Virus record (IMG/VR): IMGVR_UViG_2875697941_000003
From: a virus
Lineage: Duplodnaviria > Heunggongvirae > Uroviricota > Caudoviricetes
Reading direction: 5' to 3' (one strand)
Length of the DNA: 54,981 nucleotides
The notes under the pieces were generated by a model that did no database searches, was not told the origin of the DNA, and saw only the letters and a program-made list of their open reading frames with translations. Positions 6,292-44,123 of this stretch are shown here, piece after piece. The position numbers and the translations under genes are program-made. Position 1 is the first letter of the stretch; every line of letters starts with the position of its first letter.

Positions 6292-9200
6292 TCAGCTGAT
6301 ACTGATGCCTGCGGTGGCTTTCTTCATCACCACAACCAGCAAATCGCTGATACTTGCTGTGGGATACCAGTCATTTACCAGCCATGCTGACACCGAAAAC
6401 TCCAGCGTCATGTGGCCGTGACCAGCTGGCATATCAATAACACCACTGTAAATCAGCGTATTATCCAGCGCGGTACGGTTATAAATTTCAGCACCATTTT
6501 TCTTCACTATCAGGCGGCATGAGGAGTAAATATCAGTATGCTCTCTCTCATGTTTAGCACCGCTGAATGCCACCGCCGGAATAACAATCTGCCGGTCAAA
6601 CGGCTGATCGTCATAAATCCTGACGGTAATGGTCCCTGATGGCCACCGCTCCGGTGCCCGGGAGTCCCGCGGGAAAGCCTTACCCACTGTTTTGACAATA
6701 TCGCCTTCAATCTGGTTGGCTGACAGTTTCCCTTTAATCTGACAGTTCTCATTTATCGTAACGTTGTTGAGCGTCCCGGCGTTCGCATTCACACTGCCAC
6801 TGATATCTGCATTTTTAGCGGTCAGCTTTCCGTCCGGTGTCATGGAAAATGCAGGAGGATTACCGCCGCTGGTAATGGTGGGAGCCGTCAGATATTTCAG
6901 GAACACTTCATTCATGAATATCTGATCACCCTGACCAACAAACATCGGTTTTGTGTTGCCATTTGCAGGATTAATCATCGCAATCCTGTCTGCCGCCAGC
7001 AGCACCTGACTCTGCATGCCGTCGGGGGTGTTCTCAATACCGGCACCGATACCCGCAATATAAAGGCGTCCGTCCTGCATCTGCTGCAGCTTCACAGCCC
7101 ACATGCTGTTCAGATTATTATTTGTATCAACCTGAACCTTCTGTATCTGCTGGATCGCTGCACTCTGGTCTTCCAGTTTCTTATTGACGGTCTGTGTGAT
7201 TTCATTGCTGACATCCGTAATGGACGTCCTGATTTCAGCCAGGTCAGGCGCAAGCTGACCGTTATCAATCTGCGTCCACAGCTCCTGAGCCAGATGGGTT
7301 TTCCCTATCTCGCCTTTGAAAAAATCCAGATAGCCGGATGCGTCATCACTCGGCTGACCAACAGCCTCCACGAATGCCGATTTGCCAACGGTGTTCACAC
7401 TGCGAACGTAAAAATAATAATTATGGCCCGGCCTGATATTGATACTGGCGGCTATCCAGTACAGCGCCGTACCAAGATAGCGGGCTGTGGTTTCAACCTG
7501 CCTGATATCCGCAATCCGCTTTTCCGAGAACCAGAACTCAAACTGTACCGTCGGGTCATAAACGGCAAGATGCGGCGTGGCGGTTATCTGAAAATAGCCC
7601 GGCGTCAGCTCAAGCCGCGACGGCACTGCAGGTGCGGCAATCCGGAACGATACCGATGCCGGATCGCCCTGCTGCCCCCACGCATTTACCGCCCGGACTG
7701 TCAGCCTGTAGTTCCCTGGCGCCAGCTGCGTGAAGCGGTATGTGGTTTCCGTCGTCCGGGCCGTGCTGACCAGCCGCTCACTGCCGTCATCCGCTGCCAC
7801 GGTCAGGCGAAGCAGGAAGCTCACGCCCTTCACCACCTTCGGCGTGTCCCAGCGCGCCAGCACCTGATATTCCCCGCTGTCTGCGGTGACTTCGGCGGTC
7901 AGGTGCTGCACCGCTGGCGGCGTGACACCATTCACCGTGCCGCTCTGGTCGCCGTCAAAGTGCGCCCCGTTATCCACGATGGCTTCTTTTTCCGGTACAT
8001 GCTGCACGGCAGTGATGGCATACGTGCCGTCATCGTTCTCACGGATACTCACACAGCGGAACAGGCGCTGGCGCAGCGTCGGCAGCTTCAGCCCCCACAC
8101 ACTGTATTCTGCAACGCCGTCAGGAACCCGGTTCACTTTCACCTTAAGTCCGTCGGTGACGGACTGAACCTCCACGCTGACCGGATTACCACTTCCGTCA
8201 ACCAGGCTTATCAGCGTGGTACCGGAGGATGGCAGCGTGATTTCACGGTCGAGCGTCAGCGTCCGGGTCTGGCTGTTCACCGCCAGCACGCGACCACCGG
8301 TGCTGATACCGGCATAGTCATCATCGCAGATTTCAATGACATCCCCCGGTACATGGCGAAGCCCTTCCGCACCCACGCTGAAGTCCACGGTCTGCGTCTC
8401 CAGCAGTTCCGTTTTAATCAGCCACAGCCCGGCGCGGTGTGCCTGCCCCCGGCTGGTACAGCCAAAGGCATCCATCTTCGTGACATTACGACCGTAACGG
8501 GCAATGGCCTGCGTATCTTCAACAAGCTCTGTCGCCGTCTCCCAGCCGTTGTCCGGGTCAATCCAGTTCACCTCAACGGCATTATGGCGGTCCTTCAGGG
8601 CGCTGAAGCTGTAGCGGAACGGCGCGCCATCATCCGGCATCACCACATTACTGCGGTTATAGGTCCACACCTTATCCGACGGTCGGTCCTGCNNNNNNNN
8701 NNNNNNNNNNNNNCAGTTCACCTCAACGGCATTATGGCGGTCCTTCAGGGCGCTGAAGCTGTAGCGGAACGGCGCGCCATCATCCGGCATCACCACATTA
8801 CTGCGGTTATAGGTCCACACCTTATCCGACGGTCGGTCCTGCACGAACGTCAGCGTCTGCCCGTTCCATACCGGCATACAGCGCATCGCCGAGCAGAAAT
8901 CACTGAGCACATCCCACGCCTTGCGCTGTGTGGTCAGGTACGCATTACAGGTGATGCGCGGCTCCGTGCCGCCAAAGCCGTCCGGCACTGACTGGTCGCA
9001 GTACTGGCCGATGACATACAGCGCCCATTTGTCCACATCCGCCGCACCAAGACGTTTCCCCANNNNNNNNNNNNNNNNNNNNNTCAGGTACGCATTACAG
9101 GTGATGCGCGGCTCCGTGCCGCCAAAGCCGTCCGGCACTGACTGGTCGCAGTACTGGCCGATGACATACAGCGCCCATTTGTCCACATCCGCCGCACCAA

Positions 9201-28730: not shown

Positions 28731-30188
28731 TTAGGAGCGCCAAAAAAAACCTGAAAACAATATAATAACAGGATAAATTTCAAGGCGACCAAGAATCATA
28801 GCTATGCACATTAAACATTTTGCAATGTCATTAAGCACTCCGAATGACGATGCAGTAGCCCCAAAACCTAATCCCATATTATTAATACATGCAGCCACTG
28901 TTGCAAATGATGTAAGAAAATCATATCCCATACCATTTAACACCAGTATAAAAAACACCGTGAAGAGAGTATAAAGAAAAAAGAAACTCCATACAGACCT
29001 CATTACACGATCTGTAACTATCTTCCCTCCTACATTTACACTCAACAACGCTCTGGGATGAGAAAGCTGATTTATCTCATGTTTGCTTTGTTTGAAAAGT
29101 ATAAGAAATCGAAGTGACTTAATTCCACCACAAGTTGAACCTATACATCCCCCAAAGAAACTTGACAACAGCAAAAACACTATCGTGTGCGTGGGCCAAC
29201 TTGCATAATCCTGCGTAGCTAAACCATTATCAGTGAGCATGGAGCTGGCAAGAAAAAACGAATGAATAAAACTTCCATGCAAGTCATACATACCTATATG
29301 CCAGACCTGGAAAGAGGTAACAATGATCACCCCTAAGGCTATTAACAGAAAGAAACGAAGTTCAATATCTCTGATTAAAGGTTTTATCGTTTTCCTGCTA
29401 ATAACAATATACCAAAGAGTGAAGTTGAAAGCCGATAGCAGGGAAAAAGAACCAGCCACCAGCTCAACCAAATAGTTATTAAAATATCCGATACTCTCGC
29501 TATGAGTTGAGAAACCACCAAGCGAAACTGTGGAAATCCCGTGACAAATAGCATCAAACAAAGGCATTCCTGCAAGTCTATAACAGACAATACAAGCAAT
29601 ACCTAATAAAGAATAAGTTATCCACAGTGTCCGTGACGTATCGGCCAGGCGGGGAGTGAGTTTGTCATCCTTAAATGGCCCCGGCATTTCTGACTGATAA
29701 AGCTTTGCACCACCAATACCCAATAATGGCAATACAGCAACCGCCAGAACAATAACTCCTAAACCACCTATAAAATTTAACTGTGACCGATAGTACAAAT
29801 ATGCCCGAGGTAATGAACTAACATCATCAATTACAGTTGCTCCTGTTGTTGTTATTCCAGAAACCCCTTCAAACAGAGCATCAATGAACGTTAAATTAAG
29901 TTCTGAGTCAATCCATAAAGGGAATGCACTAATAACAGAAAACAAAATCCAAAACATTACAATTATAATAAACCCATCACGGGTACGTAATTGAATGCCA
30001 GATTTCTTAGTTGTATACCACGCTCCGCCACCAATGCAAAAAAATATAACGAAAGTTATAAAGAAAACGAACAGGCTTTTTTCTTTATAAAACAATGCTA
30101 CAACCATTGGTGGCAACATTGAAAGACTATAGAGCCAAACCAGGAACCCACACATATGAGTAACAACTCTTACATGAGATGTATTCAT
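28731..30188 (-). CDS. trkG: Trk-system K+ uptake protein TrkG (TrkH/TrkG family), prophage-borne
   Basis: Sequence MNTSHVRVVTHMCGFLVWLYSLSMLPP... recognised as K-12 Rac TrkG; multi-pass membrane protein. Confidence 0.9.
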   Translation of the reverse strand: MNTSHVRVVTHMCGFLVWLYSLSMLPPMVVALFYKEKSLFVFFITFVIFFCIGGGAWYTTKKSGIQLRTRDGFIIIVMFWILFSVISAFPLWIDSELNLTFIDALFEGVSGITTTGATVIDDVSSLPRAYLYYRSQLNFIGGLGVIVLAVAVLPLLGIGGAKLYQSEMPGPFKDDKLTPRLADTSRTLWITYSLLGIACIVCYRLAGMPLFDAICHGISTVSLGGFSTHSESIGYFNNYLVELVAGSFSLLSAFNFTLWYIVISRKTIKPLIRDIELRFFLLIALGVIIVTSFQVWHIGMYDLHGSFIHSFFLASSMLTDNGLATQDYASWPTHTIVFLLLSSFFGGCIGSTCGGIKSLRFLILFKQSKHEINQLSHPRALLSVNVGGKIVTDRVMRSVWSFFFLYTLFTVFFILVLNGMGYDFLTSFATVAACINNMGLGFGATASSFGVLNDIAKCLMCIAMILGRLEIYPVIILFSGFFWRS

Positions 30189-30325: not shown

Positions 30326-30802
30326 TTACTTTAAACACTGCTCGGTTATGTATTGCTGAGCACCTTCAAGTTGGGCCTGCATCATTACCAGTCGTTCCCG
30401 GAGGGTGAAATAATCCCGTTCAGCGGTGTCTGCCAGTCGGGGGGAGGCTGCATTATCCACGCCGGAGGCGGTGGTGGCTTCACGCACTGACTGACAGACT
30501 GCTTTGATGTGCAACCGACGACGACCAGCGGCAACATCATCACGCAGAACATCATTTTCAGCTTTCGCATCAGCTAACTCCTTCGTGTATTTTGCATCGA
30601 GCGCAGCAACATCACGCTGACGCATCTGCATGTCAGTAATTGCCGCGTTCGCCAGCTTCAGTTCTCTGGCATTTTTGTCGCGCTGTTCTTTGTAGGCGAT
30701 GGCGTTATCACGGTAATGATTAACACCCCATGACAGGCAGACGACGATGCAGATAACCAGAGCGGAGATAATCGCGGTTACTCTGTTCATTGCTGACCCC
30801 AC
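30326..30802 (-). CDS. Spanin inner-membrane subunit Rz (i-spanin)
   Basis: Near-identical to lambda Rz (N-terminal TM, coiled coil). Confidence 0.9.
30385..30570 (-). CDS. rzoR: Spanin outer-membrane lipoprotein Rz1 (o-spanin), nested in +1 frame inside Rz
   Basis: [23 protein letters not shown]... lipobox plus PPPPP stretch, lambda Rz1-like. Confidence 0.85.
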
Positions 30803-31200
30803 AAACAGATTTCACGCTCAATCTCACGACGAGTCATGAGACCTTTCCATTGCTTACCGCCAGCATATGTCCAGCGACGTAGCTGATCACATGCGCCTTT
30901 GATATCGCCCTGGTTTATTTTGCGAAGAAGCGTCGATGTTCTGAAATTGCCAGCACCCACGTTGTAAACGAATGAGTANTTCGTGTATTTTGCATCGAGC
31001 GCAGCAACATCACGCTGACGCATCTGCATGTCAGTAATTGCCGCGTTCGCCAGCTTCAGTTCTCTGGCATTTTTGTCGCGCTGGGCTTTGTAGGTAATGG
31101 CGTTATCACGGTAATGATTAACAGCCCATGACAGGCAGACGATGATGCAGATAACCAGAGCGGAGATAATCGCGGTTACTCTGTTCATTGCTGACCCCAC
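30787..31200 (-). other. Chimeric duplicate segment: Rz N-terminus (73 codons), single N at 30979, then endolysin C-terminus; probable misassembly
   Basis: ORF translation switches from Rz sequence to R sequence at the N; the copy differs from the full Rz by a few substitutions. Confidence 0.6.
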
Positions 31201-31679
31201 AAACAGATTTCACGCTCAATCTCACGACGAGTCATGAGACCTTTCCATTGCTTACCGCCAGCATATGTCCAGCGACGTAGCTGATCACATGCGCCTTTGA
31301 TATCGCCCTGGTTTATTTTGCGAAGAAGCGTCGATGTTCTGAAATTGCCAGCACCCACGTTGTAAACGAATGAGTAAAGAGCGCCGCGCGTTGTTTCCGG
31401 TATATCGACTTNGATGTACGGGTTAATTTGTCTGGCGACNGTGGCAAGGTCTTTATTCAAGAGTGNTTTGCATTCTGCTTTGGTATACGTTTTACCGAGC
31501 ATGATGTCTTTTCCTGTATGCCCGTGACATACAGTCCATACACCAACAATATCTTTGTATGGTATGTAGCTGACACCTTCCAGACCATCGTTACCACTTG
31601 GGCCAGTGATTAACACTGATGCTATAGCAATTGCTCCGCCACCAATAGCAGCAACGGCTTTTCGTAATGATGGAGGCAT
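31185..31679 (-). CDS. SAR endolysin (phage 21 R21-type, T4-lysozyme-like muramidase with N-terminal signal-anchor-release domain)
   Basis: N-terminus [26 protein letters not shown] (Gly/Ala-rich SAR TM) and C-terminal lysozyme sequence match R21; three internal Ns. Confidence 0.85.
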
Positions 31680-32080
31680 TATTCACCTCTCGCAGCCTTG
31701 CGCTTATCTTCTTTAATCTTGAAATAAAGGTTTGTCAGGTACGTCAGCAGGCCAAATACCAGGCTACCCAGCACACCTATTGCTGCCCACTGTGAGGGCG
31801 TGACTTTATCGAGCAGCTGTAAAAACCAGTAACCGGCACTACCTGCTGANTTATTCAAGAGTGTTTTGCATTCTGCTTTGGTATACGTTTTACCGAGCAT
31901 GATGTCTTTTCCTGTATGCCCGTGACATACAGTCCATACACCAACAATATCTTTGTATGGTATGTAGCTGACACCTTCCAGACCATCGTTACCACTTGGG
32001 CCAGTGATTAACACTGATGCTATAGCAATTGCTCCGCCACCAATAGCAGCAGCAACGACTTTTCGTAATGATGGAGGCAT
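31679..32080 (-). other. Chimeric duplicate segment: endolysin N-terminus (76 codons), single N at 31850, then pinholin C-terminus; probable misassembly
   Basis: ORF translation switches from R to S sequence at the N; copies differ by substitutions (VVAAA vs AVAA; LLDKV vs LLDRV). Confidence 0.6.
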
Positions 32081-32295
32081 TATTCACCTCTCGCAGCCTT
32101 GCGCTTATCTTCTTTAATCTTGAAATAAAGGTTTGTCAGGTACGTCAGCAGGCCAAATACCAGACTACCCAGCACACCGATTGCAGCCCACTGTGACGGA
32201 GTTACTCTATCGAGCAACTGTAAAAACCAGTAGCCAGCACTGCCTGCGGAGGTGCCGTAGGCAATGCCTGTTGAAATTTTGTCCATGGATTTCAT
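32080..32295 (-). CDS. Pinholin S21-type (class II holin) with dual-start motif
   Basis: [26 protein letters not shown]... matches phage 21 S21; two Met codons (32295 and 32286) behind a strong SD GGAGGTGA. Confidence 0.85.
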
Positions 32296-32396
32296 AGCCT
32301 CACCTCCGCACGGAACGGATGGCATAGTTATTATGTGTAGGCTTTCAGACACATCAATCAGAGCCTTAATTGATATATATGCTGGAGACGATGCAA

Positions 32397-32421
32397 TATA
32401 AAAAGCTCGCCGTAGCGAGCT
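32397..32421 (-). terminator. Rho-independent terminator between lipoprotein morons and the lysis cassette
   Basis: Minus-strand hairpin AGCTCGC-TACG-GCGAGCT followed by TTTTTATATTG. Confidence 0.6.
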
Positions 32422-32546: not shown

Positions 32547-32942
32547 CTAACCTCGCATGTCAAAGCCAGATTTCTGAAAATCTCTGTAGACTTCCGGATT
32601 GTTGAAGGCCGGAAATTTGGCTTTATGAGCTGCGGACTTTATCGCTTCGCAATAGGCTTTATCACCGTTACTGGTAGATATTTTTAACGCCGTGCCATCC
32701 TGAGAGAATTCCATATGCAACCTGCATTTTTTCCCTTTCCAGTTATGCGGCTCATCAAGTTTGGCATTAATTGCAGCTCTGATTCCCCGCGCTTGCGCCC
32801 CCCATTCATCCTGATCATCCCAGCGTCCTGAACTGCAACTACCTGTAGCAGTAGTTTTGTGGCAATCTGAAGGGTGTAAAGGTGTGCATCCCGCAACAAA
32901 ACCGACCCAAAAAGTCAACATAACGATTTTCTTTAATCCCAC
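32547..32942 (-). CDS. Lipoprotein with TolA C-terminal domain (TolA-III)-like region, paralog 1
   Basis: Signal peptide plus lipobox VAGC; C-terminal region aligns with TolA domain III and with paralog 2 (conserved Cys pair, DG, F..D motif). Confidence 0.65.
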   Translation of the reverse strand: MGLKKIVMLTFWVGFVAGCTPLHPSDCHKTTATGSCSSGRWDDQDEWGAQARGIRAAINAKLDEPHNWKGKKCRLHMEFSQDGTALKISTSNGDKAYCEAIKSAAHKAKFPAFNNPEVYRDFQKSGFDMRG

Positions 32943-33092: not shown

Positions 33093-33521
33093 TCAGGGTT
33101 TAAAATCCAGCACCCCATTTTGAAATACTTTATATACTTCCGGCGAAGGGGGGGCAGGTATATCAGCATTCTTTATCGCATTCATCGCTTCACGACATAA
33201 ATCGAGGTCTCCACTTTCTCTTTTAACCTCCAGTAGAAGGCCATTCGGGGCCATATGCATTCTCAGTGTACACTCTTTTCCTGAATACTTACTCGCATCC
33301 CCGAACTGTTTTTCGATGGCGCTCTTGATTTGATGGGCATACAGACGGATATCCTCACTAACATCAGAAGTACGTTCAGATGAACTCACATACTGTGTCT
33401 CTATTGCTTTATCGGAGTAATATGATGTACGGTCATGATAATTTGTCGATACAGCATCAGTGCACCCGATAATAATCCCACTAATAATCAACGTAAGAAT
33501 TGATGCGCTACGAAAACCCAT
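33093..33521 (-). CDS. Lipoprotein with TolA C-terminal domain (TolA-III)-like region, paralog 2
   Basis: Signal peptide plus lipobox IIGC; C-terminus QIKSAIEKQFGDASKYSGKECTLRMHMAPNGLLLEVK...PEVYKVFQNGVLDFKP closely resembles E. coli TolA C-terminus; own SD GAGGAA and TATATATAAT -10-like box upstream. Confidence 0.7.
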   Translation of the reverse strand: MGFRSASILTLIISGIIIGCTDAVSTNYHDRTSYYSDKAIETQYVSSSERTSDVSEDIRLYAHQIKSAIEKQFGDASKYSGKECTLRMHMAPNGLLLEVKRESGDLDLCREAMNAIKNADIPAPPSPEVYKVFQNGVLDFKP

Positions 33522-37866: not shown

Positions 37867-39066
37867 ATGCCATTTGTTATTTATGTGTTTACTATCAGTG
37901 CCTTTGCGCTCGGACTCGCGGAATTTGTCCCCATTGGGCTGACAGACGTTATGGCTCAGGGGTTGTGTGTGGGTGTGGAGCAGACCGGGGCAGCGGTTAC
38001 AACCTATGCACTGGGGGCAACGTTCGCGGCACCCGTACTGTCTGCGCTGACAGCAAGCTGGAGCCGGAAAAATGTAATGCTTACAACTGCCGTTGTGTTT
38101 ACTGCCGGTAGTCTGGCGGCCGCGTTTGCAGCCACATTACCTCAGCTCCTGTTAGCGCGGTTCATTGCTGGTCTGGGACACGGCCTGTTTCTGGCTGCGG
38201 CATCCAGTACCGCAGCTCGTCTTGCTGGACCGGGTAAAGCAGGCAGAGCGGTGGCTGTGGTATTTGGTGGCTTTACTCTGGCGATGGCAATCGGCGTACC
38301 GCTGAGTACATGGTTGGGGGGGGTGGTCTCATGGCGTCCAGTTCTCGGCGCTATTGCCGCTTTTGGCGCGTTCGGATTCCTTGGACTGTTGTTCGGTATG
38401 AAAGATCCCGTACGCAGCGTGCCCGGTGAACATAGTGACTCAGCAATGCAGAATATCGGCATGCTGTTTAACCGTAAGTTGCTGGCCGGCGCGCTGGTTA
38501 CGGTGCTGGCGTATGCAGGCTCGTTTACGGATTACACCTTTATCGCACCTATTCTGACGCAGGTGACAGGGGTTACCGGAGCAACGGTGAGTCTGTTTAT
38601 GCTGGTTTACGGTATTACAGCTGCGGTAGGTAATATTCTTGGTGGGAAACTTACCGACAGCATGGGGGTTAATCGTGCCAATATACTCATCATTAGCGGC
38701 ATTGTTGTTGTCGTGCTTGGTATGTGGCTGCTGTCATCCTCACCGGTGAGCATGGGCATTCTGGTTGCGCTGCTGGGTATGGTGACATTTGCCGCAGTGC
38801 CGGCACTGCAGGCCCGTCTGATTGGTGTCGCTGAGCAACATGCTCCTCATGCGCATGGTGTTGCTGCCGGCCTGAATATTGCGGGCTTCAACTCAGGTAT
38901 AGCGCTGGGATCAGTACTGGGCAGCATTACTATAAGCCACGCCGGTATCGTGTATACCGGTATCAGCGGTGCGATTGTTTCTCTGCTCGGCCTGCTGTTG
39001 CTGCTTGCACAAATCCGTCGCAGCCACAGTCGTAAATTTCAACAGGTTAAAATCGTAGGCCAGTAA
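37867..39066 (+). CDS. MFS transporter (12-TM), 399 aa
   Basis: Hydrophobic multi-pass sequence with MFS-like architecture. Confidence 0.8.
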   Translation: MPFVIYVFTISAFALGLAEFVPIGLTDVMAQGLCVGVEQTGAAVTTYALGATFAAPVLSALTASWSRKNVMLTTAVVFTAGSLAAAFAATLPQLLLARFIAGLGHGLFLAAASSTAARLAGPGKAGRAVAVVFGGFTLAMAIGVPLSTWLGGVVSWRPVLGAIAAFGAFGFLGLLFGMKDPVRSVPGEHSDSAMQNIGMLFNRKLLAGALVTVLAYAGSFTDYTFIAPILTQVTGVTGATVSLFMLVYGITAAVGNILGGKLTDSMGVNRANILIISGIVVVVLGMWLLSSSPVSMGILVALLGMVTFAAVPALQARLIGVAEQHAPHAHGVAAGLNIAGFNSGIALGSVLGSITISHAGIVYTGISGAIVSLLGLLLLLAQIRRSHSRKFQQVKIVGQ

Positions 39067-39077
39067 AGGGAGGTTAT

Positions 39078-39770
39078 ATGCTTACCCGTGAAAATATGCT
39101 TAATGGCACATTTGTCAGGGTGCATGAAGCGCTGCTCCCGGCGAATATGCTCTGGGACGCTGAAAAAATACGCGCATCAATGAACTCTACTCTGGAGGAG
39201 CGCCCGACGGGTGCTCCTGTCTGGATATTTGCCTACGGGTCATTGATGTGGAATCCCGTGCTGGCGATTGAAGAAATGCAACGGGCCCGTCTGAAAGGAT
39301 GGCAGCGCAGTTTCTGCATTCGTTTGATATCCGGACGAGCGACTCCTGATGTCCCCGGCAGGATGTTATCGCTCGACGAAGGTGGAATTACCGAAGGTAT
39401 TGCGTTCAGACTGCCGGAATCGACTCTTATTAATGAGCTGGAAATTGTCTGGACGCGCGAGATGATAACCGGTCTTTACCGTCCGGTCTGGGCAGACGTT
39501 TCGCTAGGAAACGGTAAGGAAATTCAGGCGCTGGCTTTCGTATCAGACAGACTGCATCCGCATTATGAACAGGACAATCTTACAGCGACCGTAGCGTTGA
39601 GCATCGCATCTGCCCGTGGAGACATTGGCACGAATGCAGATTATGTATGGAAACTGCAGGCCACTCTGGGTGCGTTGGGAATACGGGATGATTACGTGAG
39701 TGAACTGGCCCTTGCTCTGCATGAGGCTCCCTGTAACGATAAACTTCATCAGCGAGGCGCTTCACTATGA
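39078..39770 (+). CDS. ChaC-like gamma-glutamyl cyclotransferase family protein
   Basis: Conserved AYGSLMWNP motif and overall similarity to E. coli ChaC, but clearly a distinct paralog. Confidence 0.75.
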   Translation: MLTRENMLNGTFVRVHEALLPANMLWDAEKIRASMNSTLEERPTGAPVWIFAYGSLMWNPVLAIEEMQRARLKGWQRSFCIRLISGRATPDVPGRMLSLDEGGITEGIAFRLPESTLINELEIVWTREMITGLYRPVWADVSLGNGKEIQALAFVSDRLHPHYEQDNLTATVALSIASARGDIGTNADYVWKLQATLGALGIRDDYVSELALALHEAPCNDKLHQRGASL

Positions 39771-40648
39771 GCCATCTGAGCCATCTGCGAACGTTTCTTG
39801 AGGCCTATCGCTCTGGCTCCTTTTCAAAGGCGGCAGAACTACTGGGCATCACTCAGCCCGCGGCGTCACAGCATATCCAGTCTCTTGAGACTCTGGTTGG
39901 TAAGCGTCTGTTTATCAGGCAGGCCAGAGGCGTGACGGCAACCGAAGCTGCGGATGAGCTTGCCCGCTCAGTTTCACCCTTCATTGATGGTCTGGAAGAA
40001 AAGCTGTCCTCTTTCCGGTCAGGCTCTGTACGTGGGGGAACAATTAATCTGGCAGGACCGCCAGATTTTATTCATTCCCGGCTTGGGACAGTAATGGCTC
40101 CACTAATGAAGGAGGGGTATCGCCTACGCTTTCATACCGGCAATAAGCAACGTATTTATTCCCTTTTGCATGACGGGAGCGCCGATCTCGCTGTTACCGC
40201 ATCTATGCCTGATGACCGTCTGTACGGCTATGCACATCTACTGACTGAACGCATGCTCCTTGTTCATGCTCCCGCCATGTCAGAGATCATCGGATCAGAA
40301 CCTGGTGCTGAAACGCTTGCCTCATTACCGCTGATTGCTTATGACGAAGAGTTGCCACTGATTAGAGCGCTCTGGGCCTCCATTTTTCAGAGAGCCCCTG
40401 AGATGCAGGCTACATTCACCATTCCGGATTTACGTATTATCCGCGACTTGGTCTGTGACGGCCACGGGTGGACAGTGCTGCCGGATTATCACTGTGACAA
40501 TGACCTGAAAAGTGGTCGCCTGATTTCAGTGACACCTGCAGACCTCGCTCCGACTAATCATCTTTATCTGGTCTGGAACAAAAGGACGGCTAATAACAGC
40601 CGAACCGCCTATGTTCGGGATTACATTCTTAAAACGTTTCCGCGTTGA
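39767..40648 (+). CDS. LysR-family transcriptional regulator
   Basis: N-terminal HTH (HLRTFLEAYRSGSFSKAAELLGITQPAASQHIQSLE) plus LysR substrate-binding region; 293 aa. Confidence 0.85.
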   Translation: MSHLSHLRTFLEAYRSGSFSKAAELLGITQPAASQHIQSLETLVGKRLFIRQARGVTATEAADELARSVSPFIDGLEEKLSSFRSGSVRGGTINLAGPPDFIHSRLGTVMAPLMKEGYRLRFHTGNKQRIYSLLHDGSADLAVTASMPDDRLYGYAHLLTERMLLVHAPAMSEIIGSEPGAETLASLPLIAYDEELPLIRALWASIFQRAPEMQATFTIPDLRIIRDLVCDGHGWTVLPDYHCDNDLKSGRLISVTPADLAPTNHLYLVWNKRTANNSRTAYVRDYILKTFPR

Positions 40649-40778
40649 TGTTTGAAACGGATGATTGGCGATGCGTATCATAAGTTACGTATGTCCGCTT
40701 CTGGCACAAAGCAGACGCCCACTCTCACGCGAATGCTTTGCCCTTGACTTGCCAACAACCGTATCGCTTGCTCCGCAA

Positions 40779-42071
40779 CTATGGTTTTTTATTAGAATCT
40801 TCGCCACTAAATAAATTATAATAAATTGATTTTATTAGATATCTGTCAGAATCTATATGGTCAGCACGAGTAGCATGCTCTAATGTTTCAAATGCTAGGG
40901 TTTGTGCGGCTTCAGCAAAAATTCCAGGCCAACCCTTACTCAGCATCGACAGTCCTTTAAGTACCCTTATCTGAATTTCCCTCATACTGGCACCATCGCG
41001 CGCAACAGGTGAGAAAAAGTCTTCAAGTAGATCGTTATTCTGAAGTGGTGCAACATGTACAGAAGGATATTTCACTTCTATTTCATCAGATTTATTCTGC
41101 GCGTAAGCGGAAAGTATACGTACACCTCTGCCAATGACATCAATGGCGGTTCCAGGATCGTTCACTGCGGGGGAAAGGGCTCGGCAGGCTATTTCGGCCA
41201 TGACGCTAAGACAAAATCGGGGGTCCTGAGCAAATGAACGTACATCCGAGACAATAATCGTCTCAAGTAAATCGGTGCTGATTGATGACTCCTGGCCCTG
41301 ACTCAGGTACAAAACTGGCGTGGACGGATGTATGAAACTGCCCGGCTGCGCCACGAGGTATACATGACGGGGATCATTGGTCAGCAGCTTGCTGAGTTTC
41401 ACCATATCAACATATTCAACATAGCCAATCTTTTTCGGATAAACTGCAACCGTTCCTTTCGGCTGTTCATTGTTCTCAAGCCATGGATATCCGCCGAGAC
41501 AGGGATTTCTTGCTCTCGCAATAAATGTTTCGATGGCCGCCTGTTCTACTTTTGCCGTTGTCTCACCAACCCTCCCCAGAGAGGTCAAATGCTGTATCCA
41601 GCGAAGCAATGTGATGAGGATTAAGGCAATGACAACCAGTGTTACAATGAATAAAATGACTCTCCCCCTTTCTCCATAAGCTCCCATATTGAGGGCAATA
41701 ATCCCTACCAGACTGAAGAGAAAAGAACCGATGAAGGTGGCCAGTACATTTTGTGTGGTGACGTCTTCAACAACTAAACGAGTAGCTCTGGGAGTCACAT
41801 TAGTAGTGGCTGAACCGTAGGCTGTGACCATGATGCTCAGCGAAAATGTGGTCACTGCCAGCATACTCGATGCCAGTATGTTCAGAATGTTATCGACTGC
41901 TTCCGCACCAACCTTCACGGAAACCGACTCAGGTATCATTGATTTAAAAAGAATTGATAAAAGGGCCGTTATTATTGCGACAATTGCGAATAACGTTGCC
42001 CTGAACCATAGTTTTTTAAATGTCTGCTTCAGCATCCATTTCCAGCGTGAAATCATTCTGCATTCCCTCAT
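40779..42071 (-). CDS. DUF2254-type membrane protein (430 aa)
   Basis: N-terminal multi-TM region followed by soluble domain; family call from memory only. Confidence 0.5.
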   Translation of the reverse strand: MRECRMISRWKWMLKQTFKKLWFRATLFAIVAIITALLSILFKSMIPESVSVKVGAEAVDNILNILASSMLAVTTFSLSIMVTAYGSATTNVTPRATRLVVEDVTTQNVLATFIGSFLFSLVGIIALNMGAYGERGRVILFIVTLVVIALILITLLRWIQHLTSLGRVGETTAKVEQAAIETFIARARNPCLGGYPWLENNEQPKGTVAVYPKKIGYVEYVDMVKLSKLLTNDPRHVYLVAQPGSFIHPSTPVLYLSQGQESSISTDLLETIIVSDVRSFAQDPRFCLSVMAEIACRALSPAVNDPGTAIDVIGRGVRILSAYAQNKSDEIEVKYPSVHVAPLQNNDLLEDFFSPVARDGASMREIQIRVLKGLSMLSKGWPGIFAEAAQTLAFETLEHATRADHIDSDRYLIKSIYYNLFSGEDSNKKP

Positions 42072-42119
42072 ATTGCAGCCGGGATAAATAAATGCCGCCT
42101 CTGTGGCGGCATGTTGCTG

Positions 42120-44123
42120 TTAACGAACCAGATGCAGGAAGTGCAGGTGTTTTTCGTACTGGTCCAGTATGTCATTAATCAGCTGTTCCTGATTCCAGCC
42201 CATTACATCATAATTTTGGCCGCCCTCTTTGAGATAGACTTCAGCGCGATAATATCGATGTTGTTCACTCTGCTGCTCATCATTATCCAGCGCAGCGAGC
42301 GCGAAGGTCGGTGAGTTATACCCGCGAAGCCTCACTTCATATATATAATTCAGCTCGTTGCCCAAATCGACTTCAAGGCGAATACGATCCTCGGCGGCGT
42401 CACTGATGTGGCTTATCGTTCCCTGCTTGTTAAGTTCCTCCTGAACCAGCGTCATGGCGGGTTGGATAATGTCGTCCATAAAACGTTTCACAAGAGAGCG
42501 CTTCGGCAAATACGCGATATTGCGTAACCTTCTCTGCCAGGGAATTGGGTTACGTGCAGCCGTAGGAGCAATAGTCGCCATGCTAAGGCTTTCACGCTTG
42601 GTCAAATCCCGACGCAGGGCTTTTAACAGTCCGTATATGGATATTAATAAGATAACTGAGAAGGGCAATGCACTCGCTATCGTTACGGTTTGCAACGCAC
42701 TCAGCCCCCCTGCGATCAGCAGGGCAATAGCAACAACGCCCATGAGCGATGCCCAGAAAATTCGCTGCCAGACGGGCGTGTTTGCCACCCCACCTGATGC
42801 CAGAGTATCCACAACCATTGCCCCCGAATCAGCAGACGTTACAAAGAAGACGATGACCATCGCCATTGCAATGAATGACAGCACGGAAGAGAACGGGAAA
42901 TGCTCCAGGAAATTAAACAGGGCAAGCGCAACATCCTGCTGAACGGTATTGGCGAGGTCAGTGGCGCCCTGGTTCATGATGAGATAGATGGCGCTGTTTC
43001 CAAACACCGTCATCCACATGAGCGTAAAGCCGGCGGGAACAAACAACACGCCAGTCACGAACTCACGAATTGTCCTGCCGCGGGAAACGCGTGCAATGAA
43101 CATACCTACAAACGGCGACCATGAAAGCCACCATCCCCAGTATAATAATGTCCAGCCCCCCAGCCAGTTGCTCGACTTGGGTTCATACGCGTAAAGGTTG
43201 AACGTTTTACTCACCAGTTCCGACAGATAACCACCCGTATTTTCCACAAATGACTTCAGCAGAAGCACAGTGGGACCCAGGCACAAGACCAGCGCCAGGA
43301 GCAACACCGCCAGGCCCAGATTAAGCTCAGACAGGATGCGTATTCCCTTGTCCAGGCCGGACACCACCGAAATCGTCGCTAACCCCGTGATGACCACGAT
43401 CAAAATGACCTGTACCGTTTCATTGATGGGCACGCCGAAAAGATGGTTCAAACCGGCATTCACCTGCAATACACCGTAACCCAGCGATGTTGCAACGCCA
43501 AAGACAGTGCCTATCACGGCGAAGATATCAACCGCGTGGCCTATAGGCCCGTAAATGCGATCGCCGATAATGGGATAGAGCGCAGAACGCAGCGTTAAAG
43601 GCAGACCGTGACGGTAACTGAAAAAGGCCAGAATCAGCGCCACGATGGCATAAATTGCCCATGCGTGCAGACCCCAGTGGAAGAACGTCAGGCGCATGGC
43701 TTCCTTCGCTGCCGCAACGGTCTCTGGAGTGCCGACAGGTGGCGAAAGATAATGCATCACAGGTTCGGCAACGCCAAAGAACATCAGGCCGATCCCCATC
43801 CCTGCCGAAAAAAGCATCGCGAACCAGGAGTGGTAGCTGAAATCAGGCTGCGCATGGTCTGGGCCCAGCTTTATATCACCGTAACGTGAGAGTCCAAGGA
43901 ACGTGACGCTCAGTAAAATCAGGGCCACAGCAAGTATGTAGAACCAGCTGGCATTCGTGAAGATTTGTTGCTGAAGTAGTTTAAAATTTTTGTCGGCGAC
44001 ATCCGGGAATACGGCGGCAAAGGCGACAAGAAGGAAAATTAGCAAAGCAGATGTAAAGAATACCGCTTTGTTAATCTGGCTTGTAGACTTCTTTGGGGTT
44101 GTATCATTTTCACTCATAATCAT
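42120..44123 (-). CDS. BCCT-family transporter, BetT-like (choline/betaine/carnitine), 667 aa
   Basis: Shares blocks with E. coli BetT (WSPFVG.F.ARVSRGRTIR.FV; ILDQYE.HL.F.HL) but is a paralog. Confidence 0.85.
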   Translation of the reverse strand: MIMSENDTTPKKSTSQINKAVFFTSALLIFLLVAFAAVFPDVADKNFKLLQQQIFTNASWFYILAVALILLSVTFLGLSRYGDIKLGPDHAQPDFSYHSWFAMLFSAGMGIGLMFFGVAEPVMHYLSPPVGTPETVAAAKEAMRLTFFHWGLHAWAIYAIVALILAFFSYRHGLPLTLRSALYPIIGDRIYGPIGHAVDIFAVIGTVFGVATSLGYGVLQVNAGLNHLFGVPINETVQVILIVVITGLATISVVSGLDKGIRILSELNLGLAVLLLALVLCLGPTVLLLKSFVENTGGYLSELVSKTFNLYAYEPKSSNWLGGWTLLYWGWWLSWSPFVGMFIARVSRGRTIREFVTGVLFVPAGFTLMWMTVFGNSAIYLIMNQGATDLANTVQQDVALALFNFLEHFPFSSVLSFIAMAMVIVFFVTSADSGAMVVDTLASGGVANTPVWQRIFWASLMGVVAIALLIAGGLSALQTVTIASALPFSVILLISIYGLLKALRRDLTKRESLSMATIAPTAARNPIPWQRRLRNIAYLPKRSLVKRFMDDIIQPAMTLVQEELNKQGTISHISDAAEDRIRLEVDLGNELNYIYEVRLRGYNSPTFALAALDNDEQQSEQHRYYRAEVYLKEGGQNYDVMGWNQEQLINDILDQYEKHLHFLHLVR

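Follow-up and report, generated by a model that had tools for sequence, protein, structure and literature searches.

Positions 30,326 to 32,295 of a 54,981-nucleotide (nt) stretch of caudoviricete DNA, the IMG/VR record IMGVR_UViG_2875697941_000003 (the window, by which we mean the whole stretch analysed), hold what sequence comparison identifies as the late lysis cassette of a Rac-type lambdoid Escherichia coli prophage, of the phage 21 (S21/R21) type, with a pinholin gene S, a signal-anchor-release (SAR) endolysin gene R, and the spanin genes Rz and Rz1. As recorded, the three genes do not form a clean cassette. Two tandem duplications, two chimeric open reading frames (ORFs) and five ambiguous bases (Ns) lie within it, and we hold it very probable, on the pattern of the sequence, that all of these are artefacts of draft assembly. 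The real locus would most likely be a single cassette of 1174 nt, as in the complete genome of E. coli SE11. The cassette itself is already known: its reliable parts are 100% identical to essD, rrrD and a gene annotated as 'lysis protein' in SE11, and thousands of E. coli genomes have the same essD-rrrD-Rz/Rz1 genes annotated beside trkG.

The span covers 1970 nt with exact end coordinates, and the cassette genes are all encoded on the minus strand. The same interval, from the start of S to the stop of Rz, takes up the 1174 nt given above in complete genomes, SE11 among them, which leaves an excess of 796 nt here. Repeat finders account for this by two duplications (Table 1), the first of 397 nt with 6 mismatches and the second of about 397–400 nt, 96% identical and including a 3-nt indel. 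Exactly at either junction there is one N, and three further Ns fall at 31412, 31440 and 31466. The recorded order of genes is consequently S, an R::S chimeric ORF, a full R, an Rz::R chimeric ORF, and Rz/Rz1. The R::S frame consists of R codons 1–76, an undefined residue (X) and the C-terminal half of S, in frame, while the Rz::R frame joins the N-terminus of Rz through an X to R codons 103–165. The products match both PF00959 and PF04971 in the first case and both PF03245 and PF00959 in the second, as is expected of R::S and Rz::R fusions. The initial annotation had called the cassette intact, having overlooked both tandem duplications, the junction Ns and the excess length; that description does not fit a recorded sequence with five Ns, chimeric ORFs and two duplications of some 400 nt, although the real locus is probably intact.

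A 2251-nt query over the region corresponds to no more than 1455 nt in SE11 and other complete E. coli genomes, in the form of three overlapping pieces. These are the pieces obtained when the window is cut at both junction Ns and compared with the SE11 locus (L001); from the S side to the Rz side we call them C, B and A (Table 1). The gap between pieces C and A is 76 nt, and piece B, at 870 nt, is the sum of 397, 76 and 397 nt; that is, it fills the 76-nt gap and reaches exactly 397 nt into either neighbouring piece. Similar joins occur elsewhere in the window. At each of its five 21-N gaps (1055–1075, 1730–1750, 2245–2265, 8693–8713 and 9063–9083) the 129-nt suffix of the left flank exactly repeats as the prefix of the right, with 0 mismatches in five of five cases, which indicates that this assembly routinely joins overlapping contigs with N spacers and leaves the overlaps untrimmed. 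Tandem repeats or split genes called at those five gaps are likewise a matter of assembly. Isolated Ns at 65, 260, 366, 618–619, 661, 1934, 2057 and 2087 suggest more mixed-allele consensus in that region.

The allele carried by piece B points to the origin of the extra sequence. Whereas pieces C and A are identical to SE11, piece B agrees with E. coli CP55_Sichuan at 99.7% over all 870 nt, ungapped, only its three Ns differing; the same allele occurs in STEC1587, MY1-8, E47 and MB49. A match of 99.7% to a real allele means that piece B is not a degraded copy. In CP55_Sichuan the allele sits in the order quuD, porin, essD, rrrD, rzpD, iss, ylcI, nohD and terminase, a DLP12-like context away from trkG. 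A column-by-column comparison of the overlaps showed that, at every discriminating site, pieces C and A follow SE11 (Rac-type) and piece B follows CP55 (DLP12-type). Only three sites (6587, 6613 and 6641) distinguish the two alleles in the interval from SE11 position 6400 to 6909, and the Ns of piece B are placed exactly there. Ns on all three allele-variable sites are the signature of a consensus drawn from reads of two paralogous loci. This pattern implies that the strain would carry a further prophage, DLP12-like, whose lysis cassette is a paralogue. No second cassette was found elsewhere in the window, where piece B matches only itself and its two overlaps. On this account, the 76-nt gap between two correct contigs would have been bridged by an 870-nt consensus, built largely from the DLP12-like paralogous cassette, which was then presumably inserted with single-N separators and with its 397-nt flanks left untrimmed.

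That the duplications are instead real, produced by recombination between the cassettes of two co-resident prophages and yielding tandem partial duplications with genuine R::S and Rz::R fusion genes, is in our estimate highly improbable. Both fusion ORFs are in frame, and the middle segment is a real allele of other genomes, so that paralogous partners for recombination do exist. Such an event would nonetheless have to place an N exactly at either junction, leave overlaps that are identical, at 397 nt, on both sides of a 76-nt core, and set the internal Ns on allele-variable sites, which indicate mixed reads, in an assembly with the same untrimmed-overlap signature at all five 21-N gaps. Moreover, among 5,426 complete E. 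coli genomes, none had a duplicated record ranking above the non-duplicated arrangement, and the junction-spanning pattern had 0 matches in species-representative genomes. The top matches in four to five pieces were considered as duplicated cassettes; the first (H1) was rejected, an IS3 insertion splitting its rrrD, and the features of the second (H2) list an IS3 transposase; these two span more DNA. The orthologous rrrD of CH4804 (L008, NZ_CM166344.1 483257–485090), a related complete E. coli genome, is split by an IS3-family insertion, and LR-25 (H2) has an IS3 element inside the matched stretch; both exemplify natural inactivation of the cassette.

A second alternative does without duplication and takes the locus as a true mosaic, its centre (the 3' half of S, R and the 5' part of Rz) gene-converted to the DLP12-type allele and the resulting single-nucleotide differences having blocked the merging of overlaps. 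Lambdoid lysis cassettes are well known as mosaics, with many allele combinations among phages, and the assembler did place piece B at this locus. We nevertheless regard this as unlikely: the outer pieces are Rac-type at every discriminating overlap site where piece B is DLP12-type, and two different sequences for the same positions are better fitted by two loci than by one. The Ns at variable sites again indicate that both alleles were present in the reads.

Several points weigh against our reading of the locus as an assembly artefact around an intact, functional cassette. The artefact is deduced from the sequence pattern and from comparison with other genomes. R codons 77–102, which correspond to the 76 nt between the outer pieces, are covered by the mixed piece B only, so that for the trkG-linked R we infer intactness. 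That both chimeric ORFs are in frame, for which the odds are about 1 in 9, might be taken as a sign of selection, for which there is no other support. Finally, homologous lysis cassettes can stay silent in lysogens.

Taken in reverse orientation, the window shows collinearity with the Rac-type prophage of SE11; it is also collinear with Rac of E. coli K-12. In the SE11 prophage the order is intR, xisR, ralR, recT, recE, kilR, sieB and ydaT/U/V, and farther on DUF1367, DUF1364 and DUF1133 (Q-like) genes; after the Q-like gene follow two TolA-like genes, essD, rrrD, Rz, trkG, a ParB-like gene, terminase, and head and tail genes. K-12 Rac, with the order ydaW, rzpR (a pseudogene), rzoR and trkG, aligns at 99.7% from trkG to window position 30770, 20 nt inside Rz, and then ends. 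The cassette is thus, by position and alignment, the Rac prophage locus orthologous to K-12 rzpR/rzoR and directly upstream of trkG; S, R and the start of Rz were lost in K-12 and are kept in the window and in SE11. The initial annotation had stated that K-12 retains only the rzpR/rzoR remnants, which holds for the Rac locus; as K-12 also has a complete paralogous cassette in DLP12 (essD-rrrD-rzpD-rzoD), 'only' is too strong.

Could the recorded cassette itself be a decayed, non-functional remnant of the K-12 kind? As recorded, the first copy of R is truncated and the full copy has ambiguous codons. However, S, R, Rz and Rz1 each have one or more full-length copies, without stop or frameshift, the outer pieces match SE11 at 100% and the SE11 genes carry annotations as intact, and the K-12 deletion end point at 30770 is not present here. 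We therefore judge decay to be very unlikely.

The individual genes were assigned by Pfam profiles, with scores so far over the curated cut-offs that chance is not a plausible source of the assignments, and were compared with those of phage 21 (OL657228), lambda, K-12 DLP12, K-12 Rac and SE11. The S product scores 120.9 bits against PF04971 (Bacteriophage P21 holin S; cut-off 26) over profile positions 1–63 of 64. It shares 64 of 71 residues (90.1%) with S21, residues 1–26 including MKSM being identical, and is 94.4% identical to DLP12 EssD and 100% to SE11 EssD. The gene starts at 32295 with ATG AAA TCC ATG, encoding MKSM, and stops at 32080. By the dual-start annotation of phage 21, Met1 (32295) is ascribed to the S71 antiholin form and Met4 (32286) to the S68 pinholin form. 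A Shine-Dalgarno sequence, GGAGGTGA, lies 4 nt 5' of the start codon; its GAGG core and spacing are kept in phage 21, K-12 DLP12 and SE11, and GGAGG is common to it and phage 21. A topology with two transmembrane domains (TMDs), taken from hydropathy calculation only (Kyte-Doolittle, KD), comprises a weakly hydrophobic TMD1 (residues 8–28; KD 0.56, 57% Gly/Ala/Ser/Thr) and TMD2 (residues 36–56; KD 1.57). By family, dual start and two predicted transmembrane segments with a weakly hydrophobic first, S is assignable as a pinholin of the S21 type. S21 makes small holes (about 2 nm, heptameric) that depolarise the membrane and do not release cytoplasmic endolysin (PMC9636201).

The R product scores 151.9 bits against PF00959 (phage lysozyme; cut-off 22.3) and matches the solved structures 4ZPU (RrrD) and 3HDE/3HDF (R21) with E of about 1e-107. 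In its SE11 allele it is identical to R21 at 162 of 165 residues (98.2%; the differences are A8V, A73T and M98T), and it is about 98% identical to DLP12 RrrD. Its putative SAR segment, residues 8–26, has a mean KD hydropathy of 2.24 and 58% Gly/Ala/Ser/Thr, and equals that of R21 except for A8V. Glu, Asp and Thr are present at positions 35, 44 and 50, which we take to be the catalytic triad Glu35-Asp44-Thr50, using the numbering generally known from the R21 literature. R is accordingly classed, on its sequence, as a SAR endolysin of the R21 type, a glycoside hydrolase family 24 (GH24) lysozyme with a Gly/Ala-rich N-terminal SAR segment. The R allele of piece B encodes one SAR alanine fewer (AVAAIGGG vs AVAAAIGGG); the same 3-nt deletion occurs in at least five complete genomes (H26–H30), each matching all 870 nt ungapped, which marks it as a real natural variant in SAR length and not an error.

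Rz scores 179.5 bits against PF03245 (Rz lysis protein; cut-off 25.4) and is 89.6% identical to phage 21 Rz, 90.9% to lambda Rz, about 90% to DLP12 RzpD and 100% to the SE11 protein. It has a predicted transmembrane segment at residues 4–22 (KD 2.49), and Cys99 and Cys152 are kept at the same positions as in lambda. The ATG of Rz overlaps the TGA stop of R as ATGA. Rz1 scores 69.5 bits against PF06085 (Rz1 lipoprotein; cut-off 27.9), with identities of 91.8% to phage 21 Rz1, 90.2% to lambda Rz1, about 90% to DLP12 RzoD and 98.4% to K-12 RzoR, with which it shares the GNDW C-terminus. It has a VVGC lipobox with Cys20, Cys29, a PPPPP run, and 10 prolines among 41 mature residues. The gene (30570..30385) lies entirely inside Rz (30790..30326), and, as (30790 − 30570) mod 3 = 1, in its +1 frame. 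Embedded spanins are characterised by an o-spanin lipobox, a penta-proline run, and intermolecular disulfides through Rz C99/C152 and Rz1 C29 (PMC6139136), and the pair is by these features assignable to the lambda-family two-component embedded spanins. The gene-level claims of the initial annotation, namely an MKSM dual start behind a Shine-Dalgarno sequence, a Gly/Ala-rich SAR start of the endolysin, an Rz1 with lipobox and PPPPP nested in the +1 frame of Rz, and similarity in alignment to S21, R21 and Rz/Rz1, are all borne out by these comparisons.

The resemblance of the spanins to those of lambda raises the question of a canonical lambda-type system, in which large holin holes release a cytoplasmic transglycosylase. 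Rz and Rz1 do indeed share about 90% of their residues with their lambda counterparts; the cysteines stand at the same positions, and the penta-proline run recurs. The holin and endolysin of lambda, in contrast, are effectively unrelated, with 21% identity for S and 20% for R in global alignment: the lambda holin is of class I, with three transmembrane segments, and the lambda endolysin is a cytoplasmic transglycosylase, whereas here S matches the P21 holin family, not that of lambda, and R, a GH24 lysozyme, has a SAR segment at its N-terminus. Pfam, structure matches and protein identities already refute the lambda-type system, to which we give next to no probability.

Phage 21 is among the closest characterised systems. 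Its record annotates an S21-71 antiholin, an S21-68 pinholin, a SAR endolysin, an i-spanin and an o-spanin, in the same gene order as here. In both, S overlaps R by 1 nt (TAATG), and R overlaps Rz at ATGA; across 92% of the cassette the nucleotide sequences agree at 93.9%, and the dual start, Shine-Dalgarno spacing, SAR segment and catalytic triad are all kept. S differs from S21 by seven conservative substitutions (W27L, Q30R, S32T, L47F, F49L, R61K and R64K). The C-terminal parts of the spanins diverge, Rz ending in CLK here and in CR in phage 21, and Rz1 in GNDW here and in ERG there. The flanks differ as well: two TolA-like genes lie upstream and trkG downstream here, where phage 21 has tRNA genes upstream and bor downstream. 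Several isolated coliphages match the cassette at 96–98%. The DLP12 cassette of K-12 is of the same family and architecture, at the identities given above, but has other neighbours, quuD and a porin gene upstream and bor/iss and nohD downstream, and is a paralogue, not an orthologue, of the cassette beside trkG. In 2,702 of the 5,426 complete E. coli genomes a close relative was found that covers 80% or more of the query. A search for literature treating essD, rrrD and rzpD together found nothing relevant to function.

How lysis proceeds is established from phage 21 and lambda (PMC9636201, PMC6139136), and from homology, at identities of 90–98%, we infer the same function for this cassette. 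Late transcription would yield both the S71 antiholin from Met1, whose additional Lys2 would delay TMD1 in leaving the membrane, and the S68 pinholin from Met4. At the time set by the allele, the weakly hydrophobic TMD1 would leave the inner membrane and TMD2 would form heptameric pinholes of ~2 nm, collapsing the proton-motive force. Depolarisation would then free the Sec-exported, membrane-tethered SAR endolysin R (GH24), which would refold and cleave peptidoglycan. Finally, a spanin complex of Rz in the inner membrane and Rz1 as an outer-membrane lipoprotein, stabilised by intermolecular disulfides, would disrupt the outer membrane.

Table 1. Features of the lysis region and its surroundings, in window coordinates.
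Feature	Position	Strand	Comment
S gene, 71 aa, Rac-type allele	32080..32295	-	MKSMDK... start; 100% to SE11 EssD; PF04971
Shine-Dalgarno GGAGGTGA 5' of S	32300..32307	-	GAGG core and spacing kept in relatives
Piece C	32450 to 31851		SE11 L001 6001-6600, 100%
Truncated first R copy (codons 1-76 + 2 nt, Rac-type allele), end of piece C	31851..32080	-	piece C = SE11 at 100%
Junction N, piece C / piece B	31850	.	N position
Middle piece B, 870 nt, DLP12-type allele, not Rac-type	30980..31849 (read 31849 to 30980)	-	SE11 L001 6201-7073, 97.1%; 99.7% to CP55_Sichuan
S C-terminal half within piece B	31849..31679	-	
Full-length R, 164 aa, within piece B	31679..31185	-	Ns at 31466, 31440, 31412
First 70 codons of Rz within piece B	31188..30980	-	
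Junction N, piece B / piece A	30979	.	N position
Piece A	30978 to 30200		SE11 L001 6677-7455, 100%
R C-terminal part (codons 103-165 + stop, Rac-type allele), start of piece A	30787..30978	-	piece A = SE11 at 100%
Rz (i-spanin), 154 aa	30326..30790	-	PF03245; 100% to SE11 protein
Rz1 (o-spanin), 61 aa, embedded in Rz	30385..30570	-	PF06085; 98.4% to K-12 RzoR
Tandem overlap 1, very probably artefactual	30582..31376	.	30582-30978 vs 30980-31376
Tandem overlap 2, very probably artefactual	31453..32250	.	about 31453-31849 vs 31851-32250
trkG, Rac-prophage marker directly downstream of Rz	28731..30188	-	context in SE11 and K-12 Rac
First TolA-like gene	33521..33093	-	
Second TolA-like gene	32942..32547	-	
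MFS transporter	37867-39066	+	cargo block
ChaC-like protein	39078-39770	+	cargo block
LysR regulator	39767-40648	+	cargo block
DUF2254 membrane protein	40779-42071	-	cargo block
BCCT betaine/carnitine/choline transporter	42120-44123	-	cargo block

Around the cassette, trkG, encoding a K+ transporter, is a moron that separates the lysis genes from the ParB-like gene and terminase, an arrangement shared by K-12 Rac and SE11. On the other side, between the Q-like antiterminator gene and S, lie two small adjoining lipoprotein-like genes with TolA C-terminal domains, which score 82.6 and 54.6 bits against PF06519, the first also matching TonB_2. The pair is present in SE11 too, annotated there as 'cell envelope integrity protein TolA', and phage 21 has a gene with a TonB C-terminal domain near its lysis region. 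Speculatively, such proteins might mimic or titrate Tol-Pal partners and so, for instance, exclude colicins or filamentous phage. A terminator-like hairpin, AGCTCGCTACGGCGAGCT then TTTTATATTG (32421..32404, minus strand), stands between the second TolA-like gene and S and is conserved in SE11; it suggests that the TolA-like genes may be expressible apart from the late lysis genes, while Q antitermination would allow read-through. A scan for promoters and terminators over 30–35 kb gave counts no higher than in shuffled sequence (14 vs 11.9 expected and 4 vs 4.3 expected), and that hairpin is the only element we note from it; it led to no assignment of a late promoter. No tRNA genes of the kind that phage 21 has between its Q-like gene and S were found in 28–37 kb.

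Farther away, a block of five genes at 37867–44123 (Table 1; MFS, major facilitator superfamily) is absent from the SE11 prophage at that position, and is unusual metabolic cargo for the region of a Rac-type prophage between replication and nin/Q genes. PADLOC gave no matches for this block or for the TolA-like genes.

The biological weight of these results is small, S21/R21/Rz-Rz1 being among the best-studied phage lysis systems, with solved structures. The only noteworthy result is technical, namely the false duplications and gene fusions that arise from draft assembly. Untrimmed N-spaced joins, of 129 nt at 21-N gaps and 397 nt at single-N joins, generate false tandem repeats, fusions and inflated gene counts, and no weight should be given to repeats or 'novel fusion protein' calls that lie beside an N of this record. 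There is a slim chance that the trkG-linked cassette is a real recombinant, its centre converted to a co-resident DLP12-like allele and, in the extreme form, with R::S and Rz::R fusions that exist in the organism. Were that so, the recombinant would catch gene conversion between prophage lysis modules in progress within one genome, and would be of modest interest.

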